Shown: piece by piece, positions 1,491-42,456 of the stretch | Layout: every line of letters starts with the position of its first letter | How positions within the stretch are numbered: the stretch's first letter is position 1 | Source of the DNA: an uncultured Acidobacteriota bacterium | GTDB taxonomy: Bacteria; Actinomycetota; Acidimicrobiia; Spongiisociales; ZC4RG35 | NCBI GenBank assembly: GCA_963778755.1 | Contig: CAVZVJ010000011.1 | Span: 10,226-74,225, forward strand | Direction of reading: 5' to 3' | DNA: 64,000 bases | Position numbers and translations under genes: made by a program | Notes under the pieces: model-generated | The model's input: only the letters and a program-made list of their open reading frames with translations | Told to the model about the DNA's origin: nothing | Databases searched by the model: none

Positions 1491-2180
1491 CTAACCCTTT
1501 CGGTCCTGTCGGAGCAAGGTCCGAACGGCTGAGTTCTTCCAGATGTTCGACATCTGATTCCACTGCCGCTTCTTGTCGATCAAAGCTGCCGACGAGGTCA
1601 CCACGGGATCGGTGACACCGAAGTGATTGGCAAGCTGGGTGAGGGTGTGGGTCCAGATCTTGTCCTCGAGACGCGAGGTGTAGAGCTTGAAACTCGCCTC
1701 GTATAGAGGGTCGTTGGCTCTCACCAGCAGGTGGATCTTGGCCACCGAGGCGCCGTCGTCTCCTTCGTGGGCGCTAAAGGTGATGATTGCGGCCCAGGGG
1801 TGGCCTTCGGGGGTCATGTATGACCAGGAACGCTCGTCGGCGTAGATCACCCGCACCCCGGTCGTGACCTTTGCCGGACCCTTGCCACCACCGATCACTG
1901 CCACCTCACCAGGGGTGATCCCACCTGCCGGGGCGTAGAACTTGTTGGAGGGGGGCCAGAACTCGCCGAAGTTCTCCTTCCAGGTGGAGATGATCACTTC
2001 TGGAGTCGGGCCCGGCACCACAACTTCGTAGGTCTTCTGCCAGAGCTGGCCGAAGCCTTGCAACGGACCGGTCGGCTTGCGTCCTTCGACATTCCCCTTT
2101 CTGGCTCCGTCGGCAACCTCTCCGACATGGAAGGCGTCTACCGGGTCAGCCCAGTTCTCGGCGTCTCTCGGCTCTGTCAA
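1491..2180 (-). CDS. Conserved hypothetical protein (possible START/SRPBCC-like fold)
   Basis: 229-aa ORF with AAGAAAGGA RBS; motifs QGFGQLWQKTY, MTPEGHP, RANDPLYE. The fold call is inference. Confidence 0.7.
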   Translation of the reverse strand: MTEPRDAENWADPVDAFHVGEVADGARKGNVEGRKPTGPLQGFGQLWQKTYEVVVPGPTPEVIISTWKENFGEFWPPSNKFYAPAGGITPGEVAVIGGGKGPAKVTTGVRVIYADERSWSYMTPEGHPWAAIITFSAHEGDDGASVAKIHLLVRANDPLYEASFKLYTSRLEDKIWTHTLTQLANHFGVTDPVVTSSAALIDKKRQWNQMSNIWKNSAVRTLLRQDRKG

Positions 2181-2204: not shown

Positions 2205-2236
2205 ATCAGATCAGGGACGCGTTCCGTGACCGTTAC
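2205..2236 (-). promoter_or_regulatory. 11-bp direct-repeat site A plus candidate -10
   Basis: GTAACG-gtcac-GGAACG-N9-TCTGAT upstream of 1491..2180. Confidence 0.55.
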
Positions 2237-2265
2237 GAAACAGGGCATGGCGGGGAGGACGGGCG

Positions 2266-2297
2266 GTCACCGTCTCGTAACGCAAGTGGGGCACAAT
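2266..2297 (+). promoter_or_regulatory. 11-bp direct-repeat site B plus -10, leaderless start
   Basis: GTCACC-gtctc-GTAACG-N9-CACAAT, then 8 nt to ATG 2306. Confidence 0.6.
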
Positions 2298-2305
2298 CAC
2301 TCGAG

Positions 2306-3700
2306 ATGACGAACTTCGACGCGGTGGTGGTCGGCGCCGGGCCGAATGGCCTGGCCGCAGCCGCCGAATTGACGCGGGCGGGCCAGCGCGTGTTGGTGAT
2401 CGAGCAAGCGGATGTGATCGGGGGCGGCACCAGAAGCGAAGAGCTCACCCTGCCCGGATTTCTCCATGACATTTGCTCGGCGATCCACCCCCTCGGCCTT
2501 GCGTCGCCCTTCTTTCGGGACCTGGATCTAGACGTGGAGTGGATTCACCCCCGGATCCCGATGTCCCACCCCTTGGGCGGAGGGCGGTCTGGCGCCCTGC
2601 TCCGTGACGTAGGCGAAACGGCTGCCCTCTTTGGGCCCGACGCCGACCGTTACTCCCGCATCATGAACCCCCTTGTCGAGTCCGCCGATGAAGTGATCGA
2701 GGACTTCCTGGGACCGATGACGGTCATCCCCAAGAACCCGACCAGCTTCATCAGGCTGGCCACCAGGGGAGCCCTGCCGGCATCCACCATCGCCGGCGGA
2801 TTCTCCTCTACGGAAGGAAGGGCGGTATTGGCGGGGCTTGCAGCCCACGCCATCGCACCTTTCAGCTCGCCGCTGACCGGAGGGGTGGCATTGCTGTTCG
2901 CCACCACCGGGCACGCCTATGGATGGCCACTGGTGAAGGGTGGATCGCAGAGGGTGGCCGAGGCGTTGGCCAGGGTGGTTCTCGACGGGGGCGGATCCAT
3001 CGAAACCGGAAGGCTCGTGTCGTCTCTCGACGAGCTTCCGGATGTCGGCACTGTGATCCTCGACGTGATGCCCCGCGCCGCGGTCCATATGGGCGGGGAC
3101 CGCATCCACCCGATGCACCGGCGCAGGCTCTCGGGGCAACAGCCCGGCCCCGCGGTGTTCAAGGTCGACTGGGCTTTGGACGGAGCCATCCCCTGGCTCG
3201 ACGAATTCAGCCCCGATGCGGGCACTGTTCACGTAGGCGGTACCTGGGAAGAGGTCGCGGAGGCCGAAGATGCGGTGCATTCGGGCCGTCATCCGGAGCG
3301 TCCCTTCGTCTTCGTCGCCCAGCAATCGCTATTCGATGAGTCGCGTGCGCCAGCCGGCAATCAGGTTGCTTGGGGCTACTGCCACGTCCCCAGTGGCTCG
3401 GATCTCGATATGACAGACGCGATCGAAAGCCAGATCGAGCGTTTCGCCCCGGGTTTTCGAGATCTCATCCTCGGGCGGCACACGATGAACGCCGCCGCCT
3501 TCGAGGCCCACAACCCGAACAACATCGGCGGCGACATCGCCGGCGGGGGGTTCGGGATGAGAAAGGTCTTCCAACTGGGAGCCACCAGGCCCTATCACCT
3601 TGGTGACGGCCTGTATCTGTGCTCCTCAGCTACCCCGCCTGGCGCAGGTGTTCACGGCATGTGTGGCTACTACGCCGCCCGTGCGGCCCTGAGGGGTTGA
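2306..3700 (+). CDS. Phytoene dehydrogenase-like NAD(P)/FAD-dependent oxidoreductase (COG1233 type)
   Basis: N-terminal VVVGAGPNGLAAA Rossmann motif, HDICSAIHP, C-terminal SSATPPGAGVHGMCGY. Confidence 0.9.
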   Translation: MTNFDAVVVGAGPNGLAAAAELTRAGQRVLVIEQADVIGGGTRSEELTLPGFLHDICSAIHPLGLASPFFRDLDLDVEWIHPRIPMSHPLGGGRSGALLRDVGETAALFGPDADRYSRIMNPLVESADEVIEDFLGPMTVIPKNPTSFIRLATRGALPASTIAGGFSSTEGRAVLAGLAAHAIAPFSSPLTGGVALLFATTGHAYGWPLVKGGSQRVAEALARVVLDGGGSIETGRLVSSLDELPDVGTVILDVMPRAAVHMGGDRIHPMHRRRLSGQQPGPAVFKVDWALDGAIPWLDEFSPDAGTVHVGGTWEEVAEAEDAVHSGRHPERPFVFVAQQSLFDESRAPAGNQVAWGYCHVPSGSDLDMTDAIESQIERFAPGFRDLILGRHTMNAAAFEAHNPNNIGGDIAGGGFGMRKVFQLGATRPYHLGDGLYLCSSATPPGAGVHGMCGYYAARAALRG

Positions 3701-3713
3701 GTCGGGCCCAGCT

Positions 3714-4067
3714 TCAGACTGCAGCTAAGGCTGATGCCTCGTTGTCGTAGATGCCAATCGCTTCGTCGAGACGGGTCAGGGAGAAGATCTGGCGGTAGTG
3801 ATCGGACAAGCCATAAGCCAGGAGTTGGTGTCCGTTGCGCTGGGCGCGGATCAAGGTGGTGACCAGGAGCCCGATCCCGCCACTGTTCATGTACTCGAGT
3901 CCGTCGAAGTTGAGGATGATGGCCGTCACTCCGCCCCGAGCGGCCTCGTCGTGGGTTGCCGCGATCTCCTGCTCGGAAAATGATGTGATCTCGCCCGAGA
4001 TATCGATCACACGCACCCCGGGGGCAGCATCGCGAACTGTCATGGTCAGGTTGGACGTAGGCACCAT
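3714..4067 (-). CDS. STAS-domain anti-anti-sigma factor
   Basis: 117 aa, ILNFDGLEYMNSGGIGLL phospho-Ser loop, IFSLTRLD. Confidence 0.9.
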   Translation of the reverse strand: MVPTSNLTMTVRDAAPGVRVIDISGEITSFSEQEIAATHDEAARGGVTAIILNFDGLEYMNSGGIGLLVTTLIRAQRNGHQLLAYGLSDHYRQIFSLTRLDEAIGIYDNEASALAAV

Positions 4068-4076
4068 TGTCTCCAG

Positions 4077-4418
4077 TTATCTGGCTGCCACGGCAGCGTC
4101 TTCATCTTCGTAGATGGCCATGAAATCGGCGAGTCGGGTGATCTGAAAGACCTCCCGGTAGTGGTCGGTGAGACCGAAGGCCCCGATTTCCCTCCCCTCG
4201 GCCCGAGCCCGAGCCAACACACCGACAATGACCGCGATCCCGGTCGAGTTGATGTAGTCGACCTCACCGAAATCCAGAAGGACTCGACCCGGCTTCGAGG
4301 TCGCCTCTTCGTAGGCGCCCTCCAGGCCTTCCTTGGCAAGCCGGTTCACGGTCCCGGTCAGGTGCACCACACCTCCGTCGTCGCCCCAGGCGACTCTCGC
4401 CTCGAAGCCGTCGTCCAT
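4077..4418 (-). CDS. STAS-domain anti-anti-sigma factor
   Basis: 113 aa, LLDFGEVDYINSTGIAVI, VFQITRL; overlaps the upstream stop by 1 nt. Confidence 0.9.
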   Translation of the reverse strand: MDDGFEARVAWGDDGGVVHLTGTVNRLAKEGLEGAYEEATSKPGRVLLDFGEVDYINSTGIAVIVGVLARARAEGREIGAFGLTDHYREVFQITRLADFMAIYEDEDAAVAAR

Positions 4419-6007
4419 CAGGAGACTCCTTCTCTGTTCATGACAAGCTCCACGGTGTGGGTCTTGTCGTGGCTCTCGGTCTTGATCTCGTCAACCATTT
4501 GCCCGATCAGGAACAACCCCCAGCCACGTGGGGTCTGCTCACCGGCCAACTTGGCCTCGAGATCAGGGGTCTCGGCGTCGGGAATCGTCTTCTCACCACC
4601 CTGGTCGCTGACCAGGACACTCACATTTGTGGCCGTGGCCCTGACCTCGATCTCCACCGGTATCTCGGCGCGATTCTCGTTGCCATGCTCGATGGCATTC
4701 ATCACGGTCTCACCAACCGCGGTCTTGAGCCGTTCGAGCCGCGAGACCTCCATGCCCAGATTGCCGACGACCTCGGTCACCTTGGAGATCGCGATCCGCT
4801 CGTTGCCTTCCTCGCTAGGGACACTGAATTTGGCCAGCACCTCAGCCTCCCCAGCATCGAACGTCTTGGCGGATTCCTTGGCCGAAGCCGTGCGCCGGAC
4901 AACAACGAGGGTGATGTCATCCTCCTGCTCGGCGCCGGCACCGGTGAAGTTCTCCAGGTCACCGACCAGGGCCGCCACCATGTCGTCGTTTGAAGGCTTG
5001 ATGGCAACCCGCCCCATGAGGCGCCCGAACCCGTACATCTCGCCTTCACTGTTGTGGGCCTCGGTGATGCCGTCGCTGGTGAGCACCATCACATCACCGC
5101 GCTCCAGGCGGTAGGTTCGCTCGTCGTAAGGCATCCCTGGCATCAGACCGAGGGGCATCCCGGTCGCCCGCAGCTCGACCACTCCGTTACTGCTTCTGAC
5201 ATAGGGAAGGTTGTGCCCGGCATTGGCAAAAATGATCTCGCCCTGGCTGGTGTCGATGATTGCGTAGAGGCAAGTTACGAACATGGCCGGGGGGATCTCG
5301 GGCACGAGAGCCTCGTTCACTTCGGCAAGCACAGCCGAGGGCGAATCATGCTTTTGCGCTGCGGCCCGAAGCATCGACCGGCACGTCGCCATTACCAGCG
5401 CGGCCGGTACTCCTTTGTCAGTGACGTCGCCGATCACCACCCCCAGCCTTCCGTCATCGAGGGTGATGAAGTCGTAGAAGTCCCCGCCGACGGCGCGAGC
5501 CGGGCGATAGAAGGCATCCACGTGCCAACCCGGAATCGCGGGTAGCTCTTTGGGAAGCAATGTCTGCTGGATGAGGGCGGCGACCTGGAGCTCCTGTTGG
5601 ATTCGCTCTCTCTCCTTGGCCTCGGCCTGCTGCTCCCTCACCAACTGGGCGACCTTCATCGCCGGCGCCACCTGTGAGGCAAGACTCCCGAGAAGATGCC
5701 GATCGTCGGTCGAATAGGGCTGGTCCGAGAGGCGGGGCCCGAGATAGAGGGCTCCGAGTAGCTCACCCTGGCCGATGAGCGGCACGATGAGCTCGACGCC
5801 TCGGTCCCGCATCGACTGCAGCGCCTCGGACTCAAAGTCGACAGAGTCCAGCTCCAGGGGTGCTCCGGTGGATAGCAGGGCCGTTTCCAGGGGATCGCCC
5901 GGCGGAATCGGCACCGCGTCGATGACCCTGGTCCCTGGCGAAAGGGAGGTCTCGGGGGCCTCAGACGGGGCTTCCTCGGACTTGCGACGTCTCAACAACT
6001 GGACCAT
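4418..6007 (-). CDS. Partial GAF + SpoIIE/PP2C phosphatase + RsbW-like HATPase kinase fusion
   Basis: IVPLIGQGELLGALYLG (GAF C-half); VGGDFYD, IGDVTDKG, NAGH, SDGITEA, EDDIT (PP2C); ETVMNAIEHG, SDQG, RGWGLFLI (anti-sigma kinase). Confidence 0.9.
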   Translation of the reverse strand: MVQLLRRRKSEEAPSEAPETSLSPGTRVIDAVPIPPGDPLETALLSTGAPLELDSVDFESEALQSMRDRGVELIVPLIGQGELLGALYLGPRLSDQPYSTDDRHLLGSLASQVAPAMKVAQLVREQQAEAKERERIQQELQVAALIQQTLLPKELPAIPGWHVDAFYRPARAVGGDFYDFITLDDGRLGVVIGDVTDKGVPAALVMATCRSMLRAAAQKHDSPSAVLAEVNEALVPEIPPAMFVTCLYAIIDTSQGEIIFANAGHNLPYVRSSNGVVELRATGMPLGLMPGMPYDERTYRLERGDVMVLTSDGITEAHNSEGEMYGFGRLMGRVAIKPSNDDMVAALVGDLENFTGAGAEQEDDITLVVVRRTASAKESAKTFDAGEAEVLAKFSVPSEEGNERIAISKVTEVVGNLGMEVSRLERLKTAVGETVMNAIEHGNENRAEIPVEIEVRATATNVSVLVSDQGGEKTIPDAETPDLEAKLAGEQTPRGWGLFLIGQMVDEIKTESHDKTHTVELVMNREGVS

Positions 6008-6015
6008 GTACTCAC

Positions 6016-6047
6016 TTTCTAACTCGCGATCGTCTCGGAATCGTTAC
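6016..6047 (-). promoter_or_regulatory. 11-bp direct-repeat site C plus -10, inside the 3' end of the membrane gene
   Basis: GTAACG-attcc-GAGACG-N9-TAGAAA, then 8 nt to ATG 6007. Confidence 0.55.
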
Positions 6048-7254
6048 GAAATGCTGATTTGGTCCAAACCGCAATCGAAACAGGCTGCATGGTCGCGCTG
6101 ACCACACCCATCCAACCCTCGACCACCCGGTCGGCGTCGAGTTGATCCCGCAACGATCCCGCGAACCCATCCATCACTCGTTGCGTGTCGTAGTGGGAAC
6201 GGTTGAACCGACGATCCACCCAACCCTGGACCCGTCTCCGCACCGGGTTGAATAGCGCAGCCACAGCCAACGTGGTCGCCGCCACCACCAACTCGGACTG
6301 GTCCGGAAGCAATGTGGTCAACCAGGTGACCCCGGCCACATACACCGCTGCTAGAGCCACCACCACGACCGTGTATGAGACAGTTCGAGCGATGATCCGA
6401 TCGATCTCATACAAACCGTGGCGGGTAATAGCGATCGCAATCGCGGCGGCGGCCCCGATTCCCCACAACGAGAGAATCACCAAAATCGGGTCTATGCCAT
6501 GGTCTCCGATAAGCCCTTCGAGAAGGTTTCCCAGGACGAAAAGGATGGGGAAGGTCGCGAAGGCAGCAAAGAACCATCGGAACTGCTGTCTCTCGGTGCC
6601 ACGCGAGTGGCGAAAGCGGACAAAGAGGTCGACGATCGCAAGCAGGAACAGCGCAGCCATCACCCAACCGAGAGCCTCGACAATCGGATCGAGGAACTGG
6701 TCGGAACCAGGTATGTCGAATGGATTATTGGGTGGCGCGACATCTCCTTCTACAGGACCCGGTCTCGTCGCGCGCGCAGCAGCGTTCAGCACGGCAACGG
6801 GCAGAATCGCTCGTATCACCAAACGTCCTGCGCTGGTGGTGGCAGACCCCGTCGGATAGAGCAGCACCAGGATCACGACCAGCGTCACCGGAACCATCAC
6901 CACCCAAGTCGTCAACCAGGCAGCAAGGCCGCCCAGTGGGAGTGATCCCGGCACCGTGACCAGCGCATAGCGGCCGTAGGCACTGGCAAAGGCCCCCAAA
7001 CCCACGGAGAAGGTGATGCCCGAAAGGATCCAGCCGATGCGATTGGAGGGGCGACTGGAAACCAGCAGAGCTCCGACGAGGCCGAATCCAACGAATGCGG
7101 AGAAGAAGATGAGCCCCTCCAACACCGTCGACGGCGGATCCGGTGGCGAGACTGACGGGTTGAGAGGAGTCAACACAGCCGCCGCCACCATGCCGGCCAC
7201 TCCTAGCAGCCACATGGTCCAACTCAGGAGCGCAGCGCGGCGCCGAGACATCAA
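6019..7254 (-). CDS. Polytopic membrane sensor-like protein ending in the N-terminal part of a GAF-like domain
   Basis: About 9-10 TM segments, RPSNRIGW, ERQQFRWF, LYEIDRII, PVRRRVQGWVDRRFNRSHYD, TMQPVSIAVW; clear paralogue of 41311..42456. Confidence 0.85.
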   Translation of the reverse strand: MMSRRRAALLSWTMWLLGVAGMVAAAVLTPLNPSVSPPDPPSTVLEGLIFFSAFVGFGLVGALLVSSRPSNRIGWILSGITFSVGLGAFASAYGRYALVTVPGSLPLGGLAAWLTTWVVMVPVTLVVILVLLYPTGSATTSAGRLVIRAILPVAVLNAAARATRPGPVEGDVAPPNNPFDIPGSDQFLDPIVEALGWVMAALFLLAIVDLFVRFRHSRGTERQQFRWFFAAFATFPILFVLGNLLEGLIGDHGIDPILVILSLWGIGAAAAIAIAITRHGLYEIDRIIARTVSYTVVVVALAAVYVAGVTWLTTLLPDQSELVVAATTLAVAALFNPVRRRVQGWVDRRFNRSHYDTQRVMDGFAGSLRDQLDADRVVEGWMGVVSATMQPVSIAVWTKSAFRNDSETIAS

Positions 7255-7385
7255 ATTCCGCCCGAGATCTCACTGGCGAGAGCCCACATCCCGAAGACAG
7301 CAATGAGGCAGACAGCCAACGTCCGGGTCAGCCCTGAGATTGTCCGTGATGTCGTCAGGGCTCGACTCCGTCATTCATCGGCGGC

Positions 7386-7417
7386 AGCATGCCATTGCTT
7401 CGTTACGTAACCGCAAC
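7386..7417 (-). promoter_or_regulatory. 11-bp direct-repeat site E (degenerate first repeat) plus -10
   Basis: GTTGCG-gttac-GTAACG-N9-CATGCT upstream of 6019..7254. Confidence 0.45.
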
Positions 7418-7454
7418 CGAGCTGAACGAACGGGGGAAGCTGCGACCGGTTCAT

Positions 7455-10260
7455 ATGCCGTTCCGTAATCTCAAGTTGCGCAAATCTCGTAACGCACCAA
7501 TATCTCCCCATCACAGGCACAACCATCGACATCAGGCTCCTCGGGCCGCCGCGGATCGAGAAGGCCGGAACGTCAATCGACGTGGACACCAGGAAGGCGA
7601 TTGCGCTCCTCGCCTACCTGACCGTCGAGACGACTGCCACGCGCGACCGGCTGGCGAGCCTCCTGTGGCCCGAGGCCAACACGGAGCGGTCACGAGCCAC
7701 CTTGCGGCGCACGCTCTCCTCGCTGCGCACCGCGGTCGGCCATGAGACAGTTACCGCCGACAGGATCGGCGTGGCTCTCGCTGAAGGCACGCCAAGTGAT
7801 ATCCGCACCTTCACCGACGAGCTCGAAGCGACCTACCACCACGACCATGACCGGGGCGACGTATGTGGTCTTTGCATTCCCCATCTCGAGAAGGCCACCG
7901 TTCTCTACCGGGGTGACTTCCTCGAGGGTTTCTCCATGCGAGACGCCGCCGAGTTCGAGGACTGGGCCCGCACCGTCACCGAGTCGCTTCGGATTCAAGC
8001 CGGGGTCGCCTTTCAACGTCTGGCCATGGCAAGAGCAGCCTCAGGCGACTACTCGGGCGCCCTCGGCGCTGTCCACAACTGGATCGAGCTCGATCCACTC
8101 CACGAGCCCGCCTACCGCCTTCTCATGCTGCTCAACGCCTGGGATGGCGACCGGCCGGGAGCGGTCGAGGCGTACCGGCGATGCGTCGGAGTTCTCGACC
8201 AGGAGCTTGGAGTTCCGCCCCTGGAGGAGACCACCGAGCTCTACGAGGCAATCCTCGATGAGGACCTCCCACCGGCGCCTGGTGTCAGGAGAAAGGTCAA
8301 GGCACAGGCGGTAGCAGTGGCGCAACGTGAGGCCATGATCGACCGGGAGGAGGAGACGGCCACTCTGCTCCAGGCCATGGACAGCCTCTCCGTCACAGGC
8401 AACGTGCTGGTTATCGCTGGGTCGGCATGGATGGGAAAGACCCGTCTGCTCGAGGAGTTGGGCCCGGCCTCGAGGATCTCGGGTCGCTCGGTGCTCTCTG
8501 GTCGCGCCTTCCGAATGGAACAAGATCTGCCTTTCGGGGTGGCGGCCCAACTACTCCGATCCGCCGCACCCCTGATCGACAGAAACCTCGAGTTGCTGCC
8601 CAACTGGGCCATGGGCGAGGTGGCGCGGCTGGTCCCCGAAATTCACCAGGCACCGGTGTCGACCGAAAGCGCCGATCCCTTCGGCGAGCTTCGTCTCTAT
8701 GACGGCGTGCACACGGTGCTCAGCGAACTGGCACGAATCCATCCGATCGTGATCATGATCGACGATGTGCAATGGCTTGACCCAGCGTCGGCGGGTCTCG
8801 TCTCTTACATCGCCAGCCGCCTCGAAACGTCGCCGTTGCTGCTCGTCCTCGCCGTGAGGTCAGGGGAACCACTCTCGGAGGTGACGAGCGAGCTGATCTC
8901 GGCCGCCGGTACCCACATCGACTTGCAGCCACTAACCATCGACCAACTGAGCGACGTTGCCGGCACTCTCGAAGCCGCCACGGAACTTCACCGGAGGACG
9001 GGAGGGATCCCACTTTTGGTGACCGAAGAGTTGTCGGACCGAGGCGACCACGGCCCCGAAGGCCTGGGGATGGTGCGCTACATGGAGTCACGCTTGAGGG
9101 ACATCAGCGACCTGGGTCGACAGGTGGCCACTGCGGCAGCGGTGCTCAACGGTGTCTGTGATGCCGCCTTGCTCCGAGAGACCAGCGGCCGCACCGAGGA
9201 CGAAGTAGTCGACGCCGTCGAGGAGTTGATTGCCGTCGGCTTGTTGCGGGAGCTGCCCGATGGAGACGGCCTGGCATTCAACCTCGATGCCCTGGAGCGG
9301 CTCACCTACGAGTCGACATCCCTGATCAGACGCCGGCTGCTCCACCGGCGTGCGGCATCAGCGCTGGCGGAACGCTCTCACTCCGCATCCGACCCCCGTC
9401 TCGCCGCTGCAGTGGCATTCCAGCTCGAGGGGGCCGGGTCGAGTGAGAGTGTCGAGTGGTACCGGCGCGCCGCCGACCTCTCGCGGGCCGTGTACGCATA
9501 TGCCGAGGCTCGGAGTCTCTACGAGAAGGCCCTCGGACTCGGTGACGCCGACCCCGCTGCAATCCATATGGCGCTTGGGGAGATCGCCATGTCAGTCGGC
9601 GAATACGACCAGGCCCTTCAAGAGCTCAACGGCGCCGCGGCCCTTGCTGACGGCGATCAGCTCGGCCTTGCCGAGCACCGTTTGGGTGAGGTTCAGCGTC
9701 TTGTTGGCCGGTTCCCCTTGGCGGCCGAGCATTACGAACGGGCTTTGGCCCTCCACCCGCAACCTGCGGAGGTGCATGCCGATTGGGCCCTGTTGTTGCA
9801 AAGGACGGGCGATGTCCCCGGAGCCCTCGAGCAGGCCGAGCTAGCTGTTGCGGCTGCCACCACCACCGGGGATCCGAGACAGCTCTCGCGAGCCCAGAAC
9901 ATCCTCGGAGTTATTTCGTCGGACCCGGACACCGCGATGGAGCATCTCGAAGAAGCAATGAGGCTCGCCGGCGAGGACGACCTGCTTCGAATGGCAGCCC
10001 TCAACAACCAGGCGCTGCTCCATACCGCGGCCGGGGAAGATCAACCAGCAGTGGAGTTGATCGAGGAGGCCATCCAGATCGCGGCCAGGACCGGTAATCG
10101 CCACCGGGAGGCCGCTTTGCACAATCATCTCGCCGATATTCACCACAGAGCAGGGCGGGAAGAGGAAGCGGAGCAACAGCTGATGCAAGCCGTCTCATTG
10201 TTCGCCGACGTCCACGCCGGAGGGCAGGAACCTGAGGTTTGGCTCCTCCGCCAGTGGTGA
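7455..10260 (+). CDS. SARP/BTAD transcriptional regulator with STAND-type AAA ATPase and TPR domains (start uncertain)
   Basis: IRLLGPPRI...TRKAIALLAYL wHTH, LYRGDFLEGF and DPLHEPAYRLLM BTAD, Walker A GSAWMGKT, Walker B IDDVQWLD, TPRs, C-terminal EPEVWLLRQW. Coding continues upstream of GTG 7582 with no in-frame start; ATG 7455 or TTG 7476 joins if one extra C near 7508 is removed. Confidence 0.85.
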
Positions 10261-10709: not shown

Positions 10710-10870
10710 CCCAGGGAAGCTCCATAGGGGACATCCCCCATAGGCGACACCACGGGCCCCCGTCAACATCACAGTCGGGGACTTCAGGGAAACCACGTCC
10801 CTTGAAGCGACAATGGGGAACCCATGGGGGGATCGCCTCGGCAGTCCCCCCATGGTTCAACCCCTGATTC
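10710..10870. promoter_or_regulatory. Cluster of GGGGA/TCCCC repeats, candidate NarL-type response regulator sites
   Basis: CCATAGGGGACATC and CCATAGGCGACACC (16-bp period), CAATGGGGAACC, and an inverted pair CCATGGGGG...CCCCCATGG upstream of the kinase. Confidence 0.4.
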
Positions 10871-10935
10871 TCCGAATGGCCATCAACTCAATGCAACGGG
10901 ATCCAATTGACGCCGAAGGGGTAGCTTCGGCCGTG

Positions 10936-12054
10936 ATGACCTCACGATTCAGCCATCGCGGGAGCCCTGAACTCGAGGCCACCCTTCGCCGGATGGTGGT
11001 CATCTTCCGGTTCCTCGGTTTGGTGTGGATGGCCATCCTGGTGGCCATCACCCTTGCAGTTGAGCCCCCACCGAGATTGTGGATCGTCTATGCGTCCGTC
11101 GCCCTCGCTCTGATCTGGACACTGCTCACCTGGTACATGTCCCGAGCCCACCCCAAAGCGATGAGCTCGATCGGGTGGTTTGCCCTCGACTCGCTGGCGA
11201 TGCTCGCCATCGGCGCCGCCTCGGTGGCGTCAGGCGCCGAGGAGTTGTTCCACGGCGGTCTTCCCCTGTCGTTGGTCTTCACCGGGGCGCTGGTCGGCGG
11301 GTTGCCGGGCTCGCTCATCGCCGCGTTGTTGCTCGGCGTGGAACAGTTCCTCGTCCACATCATCGCCAATCTCGGAGCGGTCAGAGCGGCGGGCAGTGTC
11401 ATCTTCTTCGTCGTCGGCGCGATTGTGGGCTGGACCTTCGACAAGCTGCGCGACTACGACATCGCCCGACAGGAGGCCCAGAATCGCCTCGCGGAGGAAC
11501 AGGCTGTGGTGTTGCTCCACGAGCAAAGGGCCGCACTCGCCGACCGGCTCCACGACTCTGTGTTGCAGACCCTGCATGCCATTCGGATGGGAGCCGACGA
11601 CCCAGCGCAATCTCGCTATCTCGCCAGACGCCAGGAACGCGAGCTCCGTCGCAATATCGAGGAGTGGCGCTCCGACTACCCCAACAGCTTCCGCGCCTCG
11701 CTGCTCGCGGTCCGAGACGAGATCGAAGACACTCATCGGGTCGAGATCGAGGCAGTGATCCGTGACGACGCCCAGCTCAACGCCAGTCTCAGCGCAGCCG
11801 TTGAGGCGGCCCGGGAGGCCTTGGCCAATGCCGCTAAACACTCCGGCTCGCCGAACATCGCCCTCTACGCCGAGTTCAGCAACGGTGATGCTCACATCCA
11901 CGTCAGGGACCGGGGAACCGGGTTCCGGGACGAGGCGGCGCGGATGCGGGTCCACGAGCGTCTAGCCAAACGAGTCGAATCGGTTGGTGGCGTGGTTGAC
12001 ATCGACTCAGGGCGCGAATCGGGCACCGAGATCAAAATCACCGTTGAGGTTTGA
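10936..12054 (+). CDS. Membrane sensor histidine kinase (NarX/LiaS-like, resembles actinobacterial PspC-associated kinases)
   Basis: About 6 TM, H-box RLHDSVLQTL, ARRQERELR, EALANAAKHS, VRDRGTGF; start uncertain (10891-10936). Confidence 0.85.
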   Translation: MTSRFSHRGSPELEATLRRMVVIFRFLGLVWMAILVAITLAVEPPPRLWIVYASVALALIWTLLTWYMSRAHPKAMSSIGWFALDSLAMLAIGAASVASGAEELFHGGLPLSLVFTGALVGGLPGSLIAALLLGVEQFLVHIIANLGAVRAAGSVIFFVVGAIVGWTFDKLRDYDIARQEAQNRLAEEQAVVLLHEQRAALADRLHDSVLQTLHAIRMGADDPAQSRYLARRQERELRRNIEEWRSDYPNSFRASLLAVRDEIEDTHRVEIEAVIRDDAQLNASLSAAVEAAREALANAAKHSGSPNIALYAEFSNGDAHIHVRDRGTGFRDEAARMRVHERLAKRVESVGGVVDIDSGRESGTEIKITVEV

Positions 12055-12704
12055 ACATGACGGACAGACTTCGCATCCTTCTCGTCGATGATCACGATGT
12101 CGTCCGCGCCGGGATGCGAGCCATCCTCGATCATTCGTTTGACATCGTCGGCGAAGCCGACAACGTGGACAGCGCGATCGAATTGACCCGGGAGCGAAAT
12201 CCGCAATTGGTCGTTCTCGATGTCAAGCTCCCGGGAGGCGGCGGGGCTTCGGTCATCGACGCCATTCGCCCCCAACAGCCAGACGTCCGGTTCATGGCGC
12301 TCACCGTTTCCACATCACGCGAGGACGTGGCGCGGCTGATGGAGGCCGGAGTCGACGGTTACATCACCAAGACCACCTTGGGGACCGACCTCCCCGACTT
12401 GATCCACCAGACCTACGCCGGAGCGCGACCGGTCTCACCTGATGTGGCCGGCTACCTGCTCGACATCGACGAAGACATCGTCGCCGAGTCGTCGATCTCG
12501 AGACTGACCCCACGGGAGCGGGAAGTGGTGAATCTGATCGCCAGGGGATACACCTACCGGGAGACCGCATCGAGGATGGGGATCCGGGTCAAGACCCTGG
12601 AGAACCACATGGCCCACATCTTCGACAAGCTGAGCGTGGCCAGCCGTCACGAATTGACCGCGCTGGCTTACGAAGAGGGTTATCTGCGGCCTGACGATCA
12701 CTGA
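12051..12704 (+). CDS. NarL/LuxR-family response regulator
   Basis: LLVDDH, VLDVKLP receiver; LTPREREVVNLIARG...TLENHMAHIFDKL LuxR HTH; 4-bp overlap with the kinase. Confidence 0.92.
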   Translation: MNMTDRLRILLVDDHDVVRAGMRAILDHSFDIVGEADNVDSAIELTRERNPQLVVLDVKLPGGGGASVIDAIRPQQPDVRFMALTVSTSREDVARLMEAGVDGYITKTTLGTDLPDLIHQTYAGARPVSPDVAGYLLDIDEDIVAESSISRLTPREREVVNLIARGYTYRETASRMGIRVKTLENHMAHIFDKLSVASRHELTALAYEEGYLRPDDH

Positions 12705-12874: not shown

Positions 12875-13852
12875 CTAAAACTGCAGCGCGGCAGAGGCCC
12901 AGTGCAGGCCGGCTCCGAAGGCGGTCAGCACCACCAGGTCCCCATCCTTGATCCGGCCGGTCTCGACCGCCTCCCATAGGGCGAAGGGCACCGTAGCCGA
13001 GCCGGTGTTCCCGTACTCCTGGATGTTCACGTAGACCTGTTCCTCGCTCAGACCCAGTCTGCGCCCGATGGCGTCGATGATCCTCAGATTCGCCTGATGA
13101 GGGATGACCAGGTCGACATCGTCGGTGGACTTCTCGATCCGGGCAAGAAGATCCTCCACGGAGGCACTCATCCGTTTCACCGCCTCGGTGAAGACTCTCG
13201 GGCCGTCCATGACCAGCCGGTTGTAGTCCCCGGCCGCCAGGCTCGCCTCGTTGAACGGGTTCCTGGTGCCCCCGGTGGCAAGGGTCAGGATCCCGGCCTG
13301 GGAGCCATCGGTTCCCGAGACCACCTCGAGCAGCTTTGCCCGCCCGCCCTCAGGACCCAGCACCACGGCACCGGCGGCGTCGCCAAAGAGGACCGAAGTG
13401 GCCCGGTCGGTCCAATCGAGGAGCCTGGTGATGAGCTCGACGCCGACTACAAGGATGTTCCGCGGGGAGAAGGCGATGCGGGCGCGTGCGATATCCAGCG
13501 CCTGGACAAACCCTGCGCAGCCGCTCCCACCAAGGTCGTAGACCGGTATGAAGTCACAGCCGAGACGATGCTGGAGGAGGGCGGCTGTGTCGGGGGTGTA
13601 GAGCTCTGGGGTGTCTGTGGCAATGATGATCTCGCCGATGTCGGCAGGGATCAGGCCGGCGTCCTTGATGGCGACCTCGGCGGCATTCGCTGCCAGGGTA
13701 AGCGTGGTCTCATCCTCGGCGGCAACCCGACGACGCTTGATGCCGGTCCGCTGGGTGATCCACTCGTCGGTGGTGTCAACCAGGAGAGCCCAATCGTCAT
13801 TGGTCATGACTCGTTCGGGGACATACCCCCCGAAACCAAGGAACGCTGCCAT
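12875..13852 (-). CDS. fabH: Beta-ketoacyl-ACP synthase III
   Basis: WITQRTGIKRRR, GSGCAGF catalytic Cys, FGDAAGA, PHQANLRII, YGNTGSA, FGAGL. Confidence 0.9.
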   Translation of the reverse strand: MAAFLGFGGYVPERVMTNDDWALLVDTTDEWITQRTGIKRRRVAAEDETTLTLAANAAEVAIKDAGLIPADIGEIIIATDTPELYTPDTAALLQHRLGCDFIPVYDLGGSGCAGFVQALDIARARIAFSPRNILVVGVELITRLLDWTDRATSVLFGDAAGAVVLGPEGGRAKLLEVVSGTDGSQAGILTLATGGTRNPFNEASLAAGDYNRLVMDGPRVFTEAVKRMSASVEDLLARIEKSTDDVDLVIPHQANLRIIDAIGRRLGLSEEQVYVNIQEYGNTGSATVPFALWEAVETGRIKDGDLVVLTAFGAGLHWASAALQF

Positions 13853-35149: not shown

Positions 35150-35734
35150 TTACAAGGCGGCAGGGAGTGACTCCAGGAGATAACCCCGGGATCTGATCGT
35201 CCGCACGGTGAGACCCACTGCTGGCAGACGCTGTCGGAGACGGAGCATGTGGGCGTCGAGGGCGTTGCGTCGCGGGCGATCCATCCCAGCCGACGGCCAC
35301 GCCGACTCGATCAGCGCCTGACGAGTGACCACCGCATCGGGACGCGAGATCAAGGCCGACACCAGACGGGATTCGAGCGGCGAGAGCGACACCCACTCAT
35401 CTCCGAATCTCAGGATCCCTTCGGGCTCGAGTTGTGGAGCGGGATGAGCTCGCTGGGCCACCTCGGCCTGGCTGGATCTGCGTCGCAGGGATTCGAGACG
35501 GGCCTCGATGTCGACCGCCGATGCGGGGACTCTGATCCATTCCTCGATGAGGGTGAGGTCGAGAGGTGGCGGCCCTGCTTCGACCAGCAACAAATGGGGC
35601 TGTCTGGCTGCCAGCAAGGAGGCACGTCTCTCCTCGTCGCCTGGCCAACGGATCAAGGCCACGTCCACGTCGGAACGCTCCCAGGGTCGTGTTTCACCCG
35701 TGTTTCCCCGATGTGAAGGATCCGCGACGGCCAA
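35150..35734 (-). CDS. OmpR-type winged-helix regulator with atypical N-terminal domain
   Basis: VSLSPLESRLVSAL, RNALDAHMLRLRQRL, IRTIRSRGYLL; no acidic receiver pocket. Confidence 0.8.
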   Translation of the reverse strand: MAVADPSHRGNTGETRPWERSDVDVALIRWPGDEERRASLLAARQPHLLLVEAGPPPLDLTLIEEWIRVPASAVDIEARLESLRRRSSQAEVAQRAHPAPQLEPEGILRFGDEWVSLSPLESRLVSALISRPDAVVTRQALIESAWPSAGMDRPRRNALDAHMLRLRQRLPAVGLTVRTIRSRGYLLESLPAAL

Positions 35735-41272: not shown

Positions 41273-41304
41273 GTAACGATCCCGTAACGGGTCCCTCTTA
41301 GCAT
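41273..41304 (+). promoter_or_regulatory. 11-bp direct-repeat site D plus -10, leaderless start
   Basis: GTAACG-atccc-GTAACG-N9-TAGCAT, then 6 nt to GTG 41311. Confidence 0.65.
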
Positions 41305-41310
41305 CGCGGG

Positions 41311-42456
41311 GTGAGGCTCCTGAAGTTCGTGATCCTCGTCGCCGTGGGCATAGCGTTATTGGCGGCCCAACTCGGCCAAAGGCCTGCAGGTGATGTGTTA
41401 CTCGCCTGCATGGCTTTCATCATTTATGCCGCTATGGGCGGTCTGATCATCTTTCGCCACGACGGTCATCTCACTGGCTGGTTGTTGAGCTCCCTGGGCT
41501 TGGCCATTGTCCTCGCCGATGGGATCCATTCGATCCCGGGCCTATCGGAGGTGTTCGCTCAATGGGTGTCGAGCTTGTCCTGGCCCACGGTCTTTGCCCT
41601 CTTCGCCGCGTTGACCCTGACCTTTCCGTCCGGACACGGGCCTCAAGGGGGTAGTCGATGGGCCCGGCTTGGCCGGTTGACCCTGTGGGCACTCCCCGGC
41701 CTGATTGTTGTCTGCGCTTTCATTCAGACACTCGGAGGGCCTGAGGCAGATTCTCATACCCGAAATCCGATCGGCTTCCTCCCAGCCTGGGTCGGAGCCG
41801 CGGCGTTGATCCTGATCGTGGCGATCCTGATCGGTGGCTCGATCTCACTGGTGGTGAAACGGCGCCGAGCCAGCGGGGTCGAGCGCGCTCAGCTCACCTG
41901 GGTGGTCTTCGGCGTCACGCTCCTTGCTGCCTCGGTGACCCTCACCTATATCTTCCTAATCGCGTCTGTCGCCATGGGTGGAAGCGACCCGGGGGACTCG
42001 GCCTGGATAGTCGCATTTCTGGTGATGATCCTGTTTCCGGCTTCATTCGGGGTGGCGGTGCTCCGCTATCGGCTCTTCGACATCGACCGGATCGTGTCTC
42101 GGACCGTTGGATACACGCTGGTGGCCGGGACCCTGGCAGCCATATTCGCACTGGTCGTCACCGTGCTGACCTCACTTCTGAAGTCCGAGAGCGACATCGT
42201 GGTTGCCGGATCGACCCTCGCGGTCGCCGCATTGTTTAACCCGGTGAGGAGGAGAATCCAGGACTGGGTCGACCGTAGGTTCAACCGGTCCCACTATGAC
42301 GCGCGACGTGTGAGTGACGACTTCGGCCGCCAGGTCAGAGATGAGCTAGATATGGAGCGAATCGTCGAAGGTTGCGAAGAGGTCATCTCGAGGATCCTCG
42401 AGCCGACGACGCTCGGGGTCTGGATCAGAGATGATGCCACGGCGGTGCACCCATAG
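41311..42456 (+). CDS. Polytopic membrane sensor-like protein, paralogue of 6019..7254
   Basis: ERAQLTWV, LFDIDRIVSRT, NPVRRRIQDWVDRRFNRSHYD, ILEPTTLGVW; no output domain follows. Confidence 0.85.
   Translation: MRLLKFVILVAVGIALLAAQLGQRPAGDVLLACMAFIIYAAMGGLIIFRHDGHLTGWLLSSLGLAIVLADGIHSIPGLSEVFAQWVSSLSWPTVFALFAALTLTFPSGHGPQGGSRWARLGRLTLWALPGLIVVCAFIQTLGGPEADSHTRNPIGFLPAWVGAAALILIVAILIGGSISLVVKRRRASGVERAQLTWVVFGVTLLAASVTLTYIFLIASVAMGGSDPGDSAWIVAFLVMILFPASFGVAVLRYRLFDIDRIVSRTVGYTLVAGTLAAIFALVVTVLTSLLKSESDIVVAGSTLAVAALFNPVRRRIQDWVDRRFNRSHYDARRVSDDFGRQVRDELDMERIVEGCEEVISRILEPTTLGVWIRDDATAVHP

Follow-up and report, generated by a model that had tools for sequence, protein, structure and literature searches.

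A 64,000-nt stretch of an Acidimicrobiia genome recovered from a metagenome (the window; contig C11, positions 10226–74225, of assembly G000, which is 1.8 Mb in 11 contigs and 58% complete) carries the gene of a large regulator of the SARP family (Streptomyces antibiotic regulatory proteins) in a cluster of genes with tandem-repeat promoters that this regulator probably activates. Five such promoters lie in the window and a sixth elsewhere in the genome. To our knowledge, SARPs are known almost solely as antibiotic-biosynthesis switches in Streptomyces, and few large SARPs have defined binding sites. Here, comparative genomics alone gives a predicted binding motif at base-pair resolution, an AfsR-like promoter geometry and a small regulon that consists of signalling parts (phosphatase/kinase, STAS and seven-transmembrane proteins) rather than biosynthetic genes.

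Six sites with one promoter architecture

All six sites consist of a hexamer, 5 nt, a second hexamer, 9 nt and a −10 box, and all are oriented toward a gene start. The initial annotation of the window had listed five of them, and reading the sequence confirmed each at its coordinates and with this geometry. The sites and the genes that they are predicted to serve are as follows.

Site A, 2236-2205, minus strand: GTAACG gtcac GGAACG, 9 nt, TCTGAT; promoter of a hypothetical gene of 229 amino acids (aa), from sequence reading
Site B, 2266-2297, plus strand: GTCACC gtctc GTAACG, 9 nt, CACAAT, 8 nt, ATG 2306; promoter of a CrtI-like oxidoreductase gene (crtI), predicted leaderless
Site C, 6047-6016, minus strand: GTAACG attcc GAGACG, 9 nt, TAGAAA, 8 nt, ATG 6007; promoter of an operon of PP2C–RsbW, STAS and STAS genes, predicted leaderless
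Site E, 7417-7386, minus strand: GTTGCG gttac GTAACG, 9 nt, CATGCT; promoter facing the membrane protein gene memE
Site D, 41273-41304, plus strand: GTAACG atccc GTAACG, 9 nt, TAGCAT, 6 nt, GTG 41311; promoter of the membrane protein gene memD, predicted leaderless
Site F, outside the window at G000:C4:44603-44572, minus strand: GTAACG actcc GTAACG, 9 nt, CAGAAT; before a third membrane paralogue

A start codon 6–8 nt past the −10 box, claimed for three of the sites, is present at B, C and D; A and E have longer leaders. Site A is followed by a 24-nt leader with the Shine–Dalgarno sequence AAAGGA and then by TTG 2180. Site C sits within the final 29 nt of memE, and the TAG stop codon of memE is the first half of its −10 box, TAGAAA. 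Between site E and the memE start at 7254 is a leader of about 125 nt. Two short open reading frames lie downstream of site E (7254-7385), one from ATG 7378 (7 codons) and one from ATG 7374 (34 codons, in the memE frame and closed by TGA). The counterpart of promoter E in the related genome G001 opens the membrane gene directly, leaderless, at the equivalent ATG; judging by that ATG, the memE copy in the window may have lost its original N-terminus.

We scanned the 1.8-Mb genome with a weight matrix trained on sites of other genera only, using none of the G000 sites, and took the reversed genome and five simulated genomes as nulls. The scan, a variant of a check suggested in the initial annotation, placed exactly the six sites on top: C (38.1), F (31.9), A (27.9), D (24.3), E (20.7) and B (18.6). 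The seventh-ranked match scored 15.9, and the null maxima ranged from 13.7 to 20.5, so that C, F, A and D stand above every null, E is barely above the highest and B falls inside the null range. We accept E and B because of their orientation, their intergenic position and their conservation at orthologous loci. The exact sequence GTAACG-N5-GTAACG occurs at only two places in the whole genome, sites D and F. Enrichment of the bare hexamer was rejected as a signal: the window contains 14 copies of GTAACG against 9.7 expected, which is not significant; significance is reached by the composite motif and its clustering alone. Half of these copies (7 of 14) fall in 2231-7494, for which the genome-wide density of 0.144 per kb predicts about 0.8.

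Conservation and anatomy of the element

From a comparative set of 61 related genomes, we retrieved about 30 orthologous loci. More than 25 related loci, in which the identity of the regulator falls to as low as 35%, keep the repeats and the −10 box while the spacers drift. Site C precedes every PP2C–RsbW orthologue (about 22 loci), whether or not a membrane gene lies upstream, and has the consensus (c)C-GTAACG-nTTyC-G(G/A)(G/A)ACG, followed by 9 nt, a TAGAAA-like box, 6–9 nt and, in most loci, the start codon. Across these loci the repeats and the TA of the −10 box are fixed and the 9-nt spacer varies freely. Read as codons, CGT-AAC-G has no synonymous variant in more than 20 loci, and the same sequence is intergenic where no membrane gene lies upstream. 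Because site C is unchanged in coding and intergenic settings, the constraint acts on the DNA and not on the protein; the intergenic loci that keep CGTAACG exclude a coding constraint as the source of its conservation. We also considered TAGAAA as a Shine–Dalgarno sequence and excluded it, as the orthologous sequences TAACAA, TAGACA, TAGCAA, TACAAC and TATAAA keep the TA and not the GAAAG core.

Sites A, B and E and the region upstream of the regulator gene are likewise conserved in orthologous loci, site A being kept in L001, L003, L045, L039, L041, L080–L083 and L088. The repeat core of site D, GTAACGATCCCGTAACG, is found again in G010 and G012.

A matrix census across loci (score >18) yielded 59 sites in 28 loci. 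For the anatomy of the element, we aligned 55 non-redundant sites chosen solely by their two hexamers and the C preceding the second hexamer, which leaves the remaining columns unselected. The first repeat has the consensus yC-GTAACG-nTy and the second yC-G(G/T)(A/G)ACG, and the weaker copy can be either half. In the unselected columns, yC precedes the first hexamer, T occupies spacer position 2 in 83% of the sites and the 9-nt spacer is uninformative. The −10 region reads G (68%), any base, T/C, A (81%), two variable positions, A (67%) and T/A, and A is enriched 7–8 nt beyond it, at the expected transcript start. The downstream element is an actinobacterial σA-type −10 box with an upstream G, fixed 9 nt past the proximal repeat. 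No −35-like hexamer was found 17 ± 1 nt from the −10 box at the aligned sites, and this absence, with repeats in the place of the −35 box, argues for activator-type promoters. With transcription assumed to begin at the start codon, the repeats cover positions of about −40 to −19. The start codon lies 6–9 nt past the −10 box in 29 of 58 sites, and about half of the sites, including B, C and D, most likely give leaderless mRNAs.

SARP promoters have a repeat period of 11 bp (or 22 bp), with the 3′ repeat 8 bp from the −10 box and overlapping the −35 region (PMC10936776). The six G000 sites and the 59 sites in the 28 loci have this geometry, with a gap of 8 nt if the repeat is counted as a heptamer. 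The SARP geometry first claimed for the window (11-bp repeats, 3′ repeat 8 nt from the −10 box) thus agrees with the published rule to within one bp.

The adjacent regulator is a large SARP

The regulator gene encodes the only DNA-binding protein retained in the cluster.

Regulator, 7525-10260, plus strand: large SARP of 911 residues with winged helix, BTAD, AAA_16 ATPase and TPR parts, from Pfam

Pfam identified BTAD (E = 1.9e-19), AAA_16 (E = 1.7e-17) and several TPR families in this protein, together with a weak Trans_reg_C match (E = 0.028), and the translation contains a Walker A motif (GSAWMGKT) and a Walker B motif ((V)IMIDD). In a phmmer search of the PDB, residues 1–279 matched EmbR (2FEZ; E = 6e-7, the best match) and residues 5–247 matched AfsR (8HVR). 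An AlphaFold2 model built from 15 orthologues reached a predicted local distance difference test score (pLDDT) of 88. The top six Foldseek hits of this model are all AfsR (8K60/8HVR) or EmbR (E = 9e-11 to 2e-9), with template-modelling scores of 0.64–0.76 to AfsR 8K60 and 8HVR. The description of the protein as a SARP-STAND regulator of BTAD–AAA–TPR type is borne out: it belongs to the SARP family and, within it, to the large SARPs of the AfsR type.

Across 15 orthologues the recognition helix, RATLRRTLSxLR, hardly varies, and its LRRTLS part not at all; this constancy fits the near-invariant motif. An H-x-H-x5-C-x2-C motif (HHDHDRGDVCGLC; residues 106–117, window 7840-7875) is located in the loop that connects the winged helix to BTAD. 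This insert is at least 90% conserved in the 15 orthologues, is absent in AfsR and EmbR and could be a metal or redox site.

The reading frame has no ATG, GTG or TTG ahead of the winged helix (window 7468-7530). ATC 7525 is invariant in five orthologues, in which the codon before it varies, and is preceded at 7 nt by the Shine–Dalgarno sequence GGGAGGAG in L002 and L004; orthologues at greater distance start one codon upstream, with ATG or GTG. Translation of the regulator apparently starts at ATC 7525, and so rare a start codon may keep the level of the regulator low. In two loci from few-contig assemblies, L045 (G001:C3) and L046 (G002:C2), the regulator gene is broken across several frames, as a pseudogene or through long-read indel errors.

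The region upstream of the regulator gene has an element of its own.

Site S, 7459-7506, plus strand: promoter region of the regulator gene; CGTTCC 7459-7464, 24 nt, GTAACG 7489-7494, 6 nt, TATCTC 7501-7506

Site S is a single repeat placed 2–3 bp nearer to the −10 box than in sites A–F, with an inverted GGAACG upstream. Across 15 orthologous loci, GTAACG is present in 11 and the upstream CGTTCC in 10, in the pattern CGTTCC-N23–25-GTAACG-N6/7-TATCTT. The arrangement suggests some form of autoregulation, and the half-site could serve autorepression or be a poised half-site.

The motif follows the regulator gene across relatives

A SARP orthologue occurs in 24 of the 61 relatives, and PP2C–RsbW is present in all 24 of these genomes. 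Only two further genomes have PP2C–RsbW (G006 and G007), and in both the contigs end at the cluster. These two were dropped as SARP-less controls, their contigs stopping 214–364 bp upstream of PP2C. G008 was dropped as well, as crtI and the flanking kinase gene are also absent and the locus falls outside the assembly. In G038, a SARP paralogue about 10 kb from crtI is not an orthologue (its recognition helix differs and no motif lies nearby), and this assembly is too fragmented for scoring.

A loose tandem pattern proved noisy in the 61 genomes (5.3 hits against 3.8 for the control per SARP-positive genome), and we replaced it with a stringent pattern, GTAACG-N4-C-GNNACG-N10-A. The 24 SARP-positive genomes contain 62 stringent hits (2.6 per genome) against 2 for the control, with at least one hit in 23 of the 24. 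The 37 genomes without a SARP orthologue contain 16 hits against 7 for the control; when G006, G007 and G038 (10 hits) are left out, the remaining 34 have 6 hits, or 0.18 per genome. This equals the background, as the control rate over all 37 SARP-negative genomes is 0.19 per genome. The initial annotation had held that a motif equally common in genomes lacking the regulator would speak against its proposal; the motif is instead at background in those 34 genomes.

Two relatives of the same genus, G005 (L117, G005:C21) and G013 (L124, G013:C24), lack the block of about 6.5 kb that holds STAS, STAS, PP2C, the membrane gene and the regulator, absent as a unit, and their crtI gene lies directly beside a small membrane gene. 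The crtI promoter of G013 keeps CACAAT and the 8-nt gap and has lost the repeats. In G005, CACAAT is also kept, the proximal GTAACG has become GTAAAG and one extra base is present. We regard the SARP as the probable binder of the repeats because it is the sole DNA-binding protein of the cluster, because PP2C–RsbW and the motif both co-occur with it, and because the crtI repeats are lost in G013 and damaged in G005.

The predicted regulon

Most sites of the cross-locus census (47 of 59) precede one of four gene families: PP2C (20), membrane paralogues (14), the 229-aa gene (9) or crtI (4). The corresponding genes of G000 are listed here.

PP2C–RsbW fusion, 4418-6007, minus strand: partial GAF, PP2C (SpoIIE) phosphatase and RsbW-like kinase (HATPase_c_2), from Pfam and NCBIfam
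Two STAS genes, 4077-4418 and 3714-4067, minus strand: anti-sigma-antagonist type, in the PP2C operon, from Pfam
CrtI-like gene, 2306-3700, plus strand: FAD-dependent oxidoreductase of the phytoene-desaturase superfamily, with a strong score only in the N-terminal dinucleotide-binding part
229-aa hypothetical gene, 1491-2180, minus strand: conserved cluster member with a weak, sub-threshold DUF1990 match
memE, 6019-7254, minus strand: polytopic membrane protein of no Pfam family, with the C-terminal motif ALFNPVRRRVQGWVDRRFNRSHYD
memD, 41311-42456, plus strand: membrane paralogue, 35% identical to memE (E = 6e-55)
Third membrane paralogue of memE and memD, C4:43334-44482: behind site F, from homology

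Across the order, the cluster runs from the regulator through 0 to about 8 membrane paralogues to PP2C–RsbW, STAS, STAS, sometimes crtI, and the 229-aa gene. Several copies of the membrane paralogues in relatives are frameshifted. The membrane family has at least 2,785 homologues; among the 120 listed, the named ones are all hypothetical except for one ‘MFS family permease’, and one listed homologue carries PF16927 (HisKA_7TM). Pfam, NCBIfam and the names of homologues gave no informative assignment for the membrane family or the 229-aa protein.

The regulon proposed in the initial annotation comprised the hypothetical gene, the CrtI-like gene, the phosphatase–STAS operon and the two membrane genes. 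Comparative genomics supports these members; the extent was drawn too narrowly, as a third membrane paralogue belongs to it and complete relatives have more sites. In three relatives we observed a second PP2C paralogue without RsbW (G001:C4:30243-31531, G010:C3:254889-255928 and L126 in G038:C167). It is directly followed in all three by a repeat site, GTAACG atttc GAAACG or GGAACG, and in L126 it is preceded by a membrane paralogue. A second PP2C paralogue with such a site was not found in G000, which is incomplete, and at 58% completeness the regulon of this genome is probably not fully seen.

The proposal that the regulon lies outside any antibiotic cluster held up: the conserved neighbours of the regulator are PP2C–RsbW, STAS, the membrane paralogues, the hypothetical gene and the CrtI-like gene. 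The genes examined around the cluster include none for polyketides or non-ribosomal peptides, and a FabH-like gene (12875-13852) lies outside the conserved block. The cluster instead holds parts of a putative partner switch of the RsbU/RsbW/RsbV type, namely SpoIIE, HATPase_c_2 and two STAS genes. It contains no sigma gene; SigB/F-type sigma genes occur elsewhere in the genome.

Alternative binders and explanations

Several observations weigh against the SARP as the activator. Its co-occurrence with the motif is partly trivial, as four of the six sites are physically within the SARP-bearing cluster. G005, which has no SARP-domain gene, retains an intact remnant of site A and a site before a membrane paralogue. 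The remnant keeps its Shine–Dalgarno sequence and the 229-aa gene behind it is deleted, so that the retained sites fit a recent deletion, albeit as anecdotal evidence. Good sites are also present in G008 and G038, in which no orthologue is detectable, and the one in G008 is perfect and precedes a membrane paralogue. These two genomes are uninformative rather than contradictory, the whole locus and its flanks being missing from G008 and G038 being fragmented. The matrix scores of E and B are near or inside the null range. Finally, the GTAACG in the regulator’s own promoter is 6–7 nt rather than 9 nt from the −10 box, which a simple model leaves unexplained.

Another winged-helix regulator of the OmpR/PhoB family (similar to GlnR, MtrA, PhoP or AfsQ1) might bind the repeats, the SARP being merely a co-regulated neighbour. 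PhoB, PhoP and GlnR also recognise direct repeats of 11-bp period, which extend into the −35 region; this geometry is common to PhoB/OmpR-type response regulators and is not specific to SARPs. At least seven further Trans_reg_C proteins are encoded in G000, including one in the window (about 35174-35392), and the two sites kept in G005 also fit a binder other than a SARP. A global regulon of the GlnR, MtrA or PhoP type is, however, unlikely: the genome has six strong sites only, all before gene families of the cluster and none at nitrogen, phosphate or cell-wall genes. The motif is at background in the 34 SARP-negative relatives, although the two of them that were inspected carry 8–12 Trans_reg_C genes, and no OmpR-family response regulator is retained in the cluster. 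We consider a binder of this kind unlikely.

A two-component pair, a histidine kinase (10813-12054) and a NarL/GerE-type response regulator (12051-12704), follows the SARP gene and a gene for a 90-aa membrane protein directly in every member of the genus examined, and the repeats could be its binding sites. Within the genus, the pair (10813-12704) is retained whether or not the SARP block is present. It stays beside crtI in G005 and G013, where the block is gone and the crtI repeat is lost or damaged, and it is unlinked to the cluster in other genera that still have the motif. GerE-type regulators, moreover, usually bind inverted and not tandem repeats, and we think it very unlikely that this pair is the binder.

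GTAACG could also serve an alternative sigma factor as its −35 element; such a factor would be a SigD-like extracytoplasmic function (ECF) factor or one of the SigB/F type and would need no activator. The SigD consensus of mycobacteria and corynebacteria is GTAACA/G-N16–18-(C)GAT (PMC13537577). The regulon itself contains an RsbW-like domain and STAS proteins, and SigB/F-type sigma genes exist in G000. The SigD/ECF possibility, which the initial annotation had raised against itself, is excluded by the spacing, as CGAT never follows GTAACG at N16 (0 of 57 cases) and does so at N17 in 2 of 44, and a σA-type −10 box emerges in its place. An element TAnnn(T/A) that lies 9 nt past the proximal and 20 nt past the distal repeat fits no −35/−10 spacing of the sigma-70 family. 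A SigB/F-type promoter was rejected: the sites have no GGGTA-type −10 box, and the sigma genes are present with or without the cluster, equally so in the SARP-negative G005 and G013, where the motif is absent or at background. An activator-free promoter of either type is hardly credible. That the sites arose by chance, local composition or coding constraint is effectively refuted: bare GTAACG is unenriched in the window, site C overlaps the final codons of memE, and E and B score within or near the null range, but four sites exceed every null, all share geometry and orientation, and conservation at the nucleotide level extends over more than 20 loci, including intergenic ones.

A model of activation

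Each refuting condition of the initial annotation that the analysis covered turned out in favour of its proposal, and we return to the SARP as the probable activator. The six sites would be activator-dependent promoters that lack a −35 box, each repeat pair being bound by the AfsR-like SARP as a side-by-side dimer. The bound SARP would recruit RNA polymerase and take the place of the −35 contact that these promoters lack, as has been shown structurally for AfsR, the box of which lies at −40 to −19 and the side-by-side dimer of which replaces the −35 contact (PMC10936776). The ATPase and TPR parts would gate the activity of the SARP upon some signal. On this model the regulon is small and self-contained, comprising the PP2C–RsbW/STAS/STAS operon, a variable number of seven-transmembrane paralogues in the cluster and elsewhere, the 229-aa gene and the CrtI-like gene.

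A more ambitious model, to which we give little credence, is a closed circuit of an undescribed kind, in which the SARP drives a partner switch that has no sigma factor, together with its seven-transmembrane inputs, and the RsbW-like domain acts back on the SARP. If true, the SARP would not only activate the partner switch but also be its output, and the single repeat in its own promoter and the HxH–CxxC insert could be extra points of control. A literature search found no paper that links SARPs to partner-switching modules.

Should the SARP act as we propose, the cluster would offer a compact system for studying how STAND-type SARPs read DNA and act beyond secondary metabolism, and would connect a regulator with an uncharacterised membrane family that has at least 2,785 members.

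Comparison with known systems

The closest counterpart is AfsR of Streptomyces coelicolor, which has the same domain order (winged helix, BTAD, AAA/NOD ATPase and TPR) and the same fold of the SARP domain. The AfsR box at the afsS promoter also consists of two 11-bp direct repeats at about −40 to −19, with a missing or poor −35 box and the 3′ repeat 8–9 bp from the −10 box. Unlike AfsR, with which it shares about 25% identity in the SARP domain, the regulator described here scores 60 bits against the NCBIfam AfsR model (cut-off 1430), has CGTAACG as its predicted repeat core, has other residues in the recognition helix and carries the HxH-x5-CxxC insert. Its predicted targets are signalling and membrane genes and not afsS or antibiotic clusters, and its host is an uncultured member of the Acidimicrobiia.

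The small SARPs ActII-ORF4, DnrI and RedD likewise use tandem heptamer repeats of 11 bp with the 3′ repeat 8 bp from the −10 box (PMC10936776). They consist of the SARP domain alone and are encoded within biosynthetic clusters, whereas the present regulator has 911 residues with ATPase and TPR parts. With EmbR of Mycobacterium tuberculosis it has in common a SARP domain and, as far as its targets are predicted, the control of non-antibiotic genes. EmbR has a C-terminal FHA domain instead of the ATPase and TPR parts, and its targets are the embCAB arabinosyltransferase genes.

SigD promoters share GTAACG, as their −35 element, with the sites described here, which differ in having tandem repeats, a −10 box of the TAnnnT type and no (C)GAT. 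The pho boxes of PhoB and PhoP and the boxes of GlnR are also 11-bp direct repeats that replace the −35 element and are bound by winged-helix proteins. Those boxes serve global nutrient regulons under receiver-domain regulators, whereas the sites in this genome serve one cluster family and track the presence of the SARP gene.

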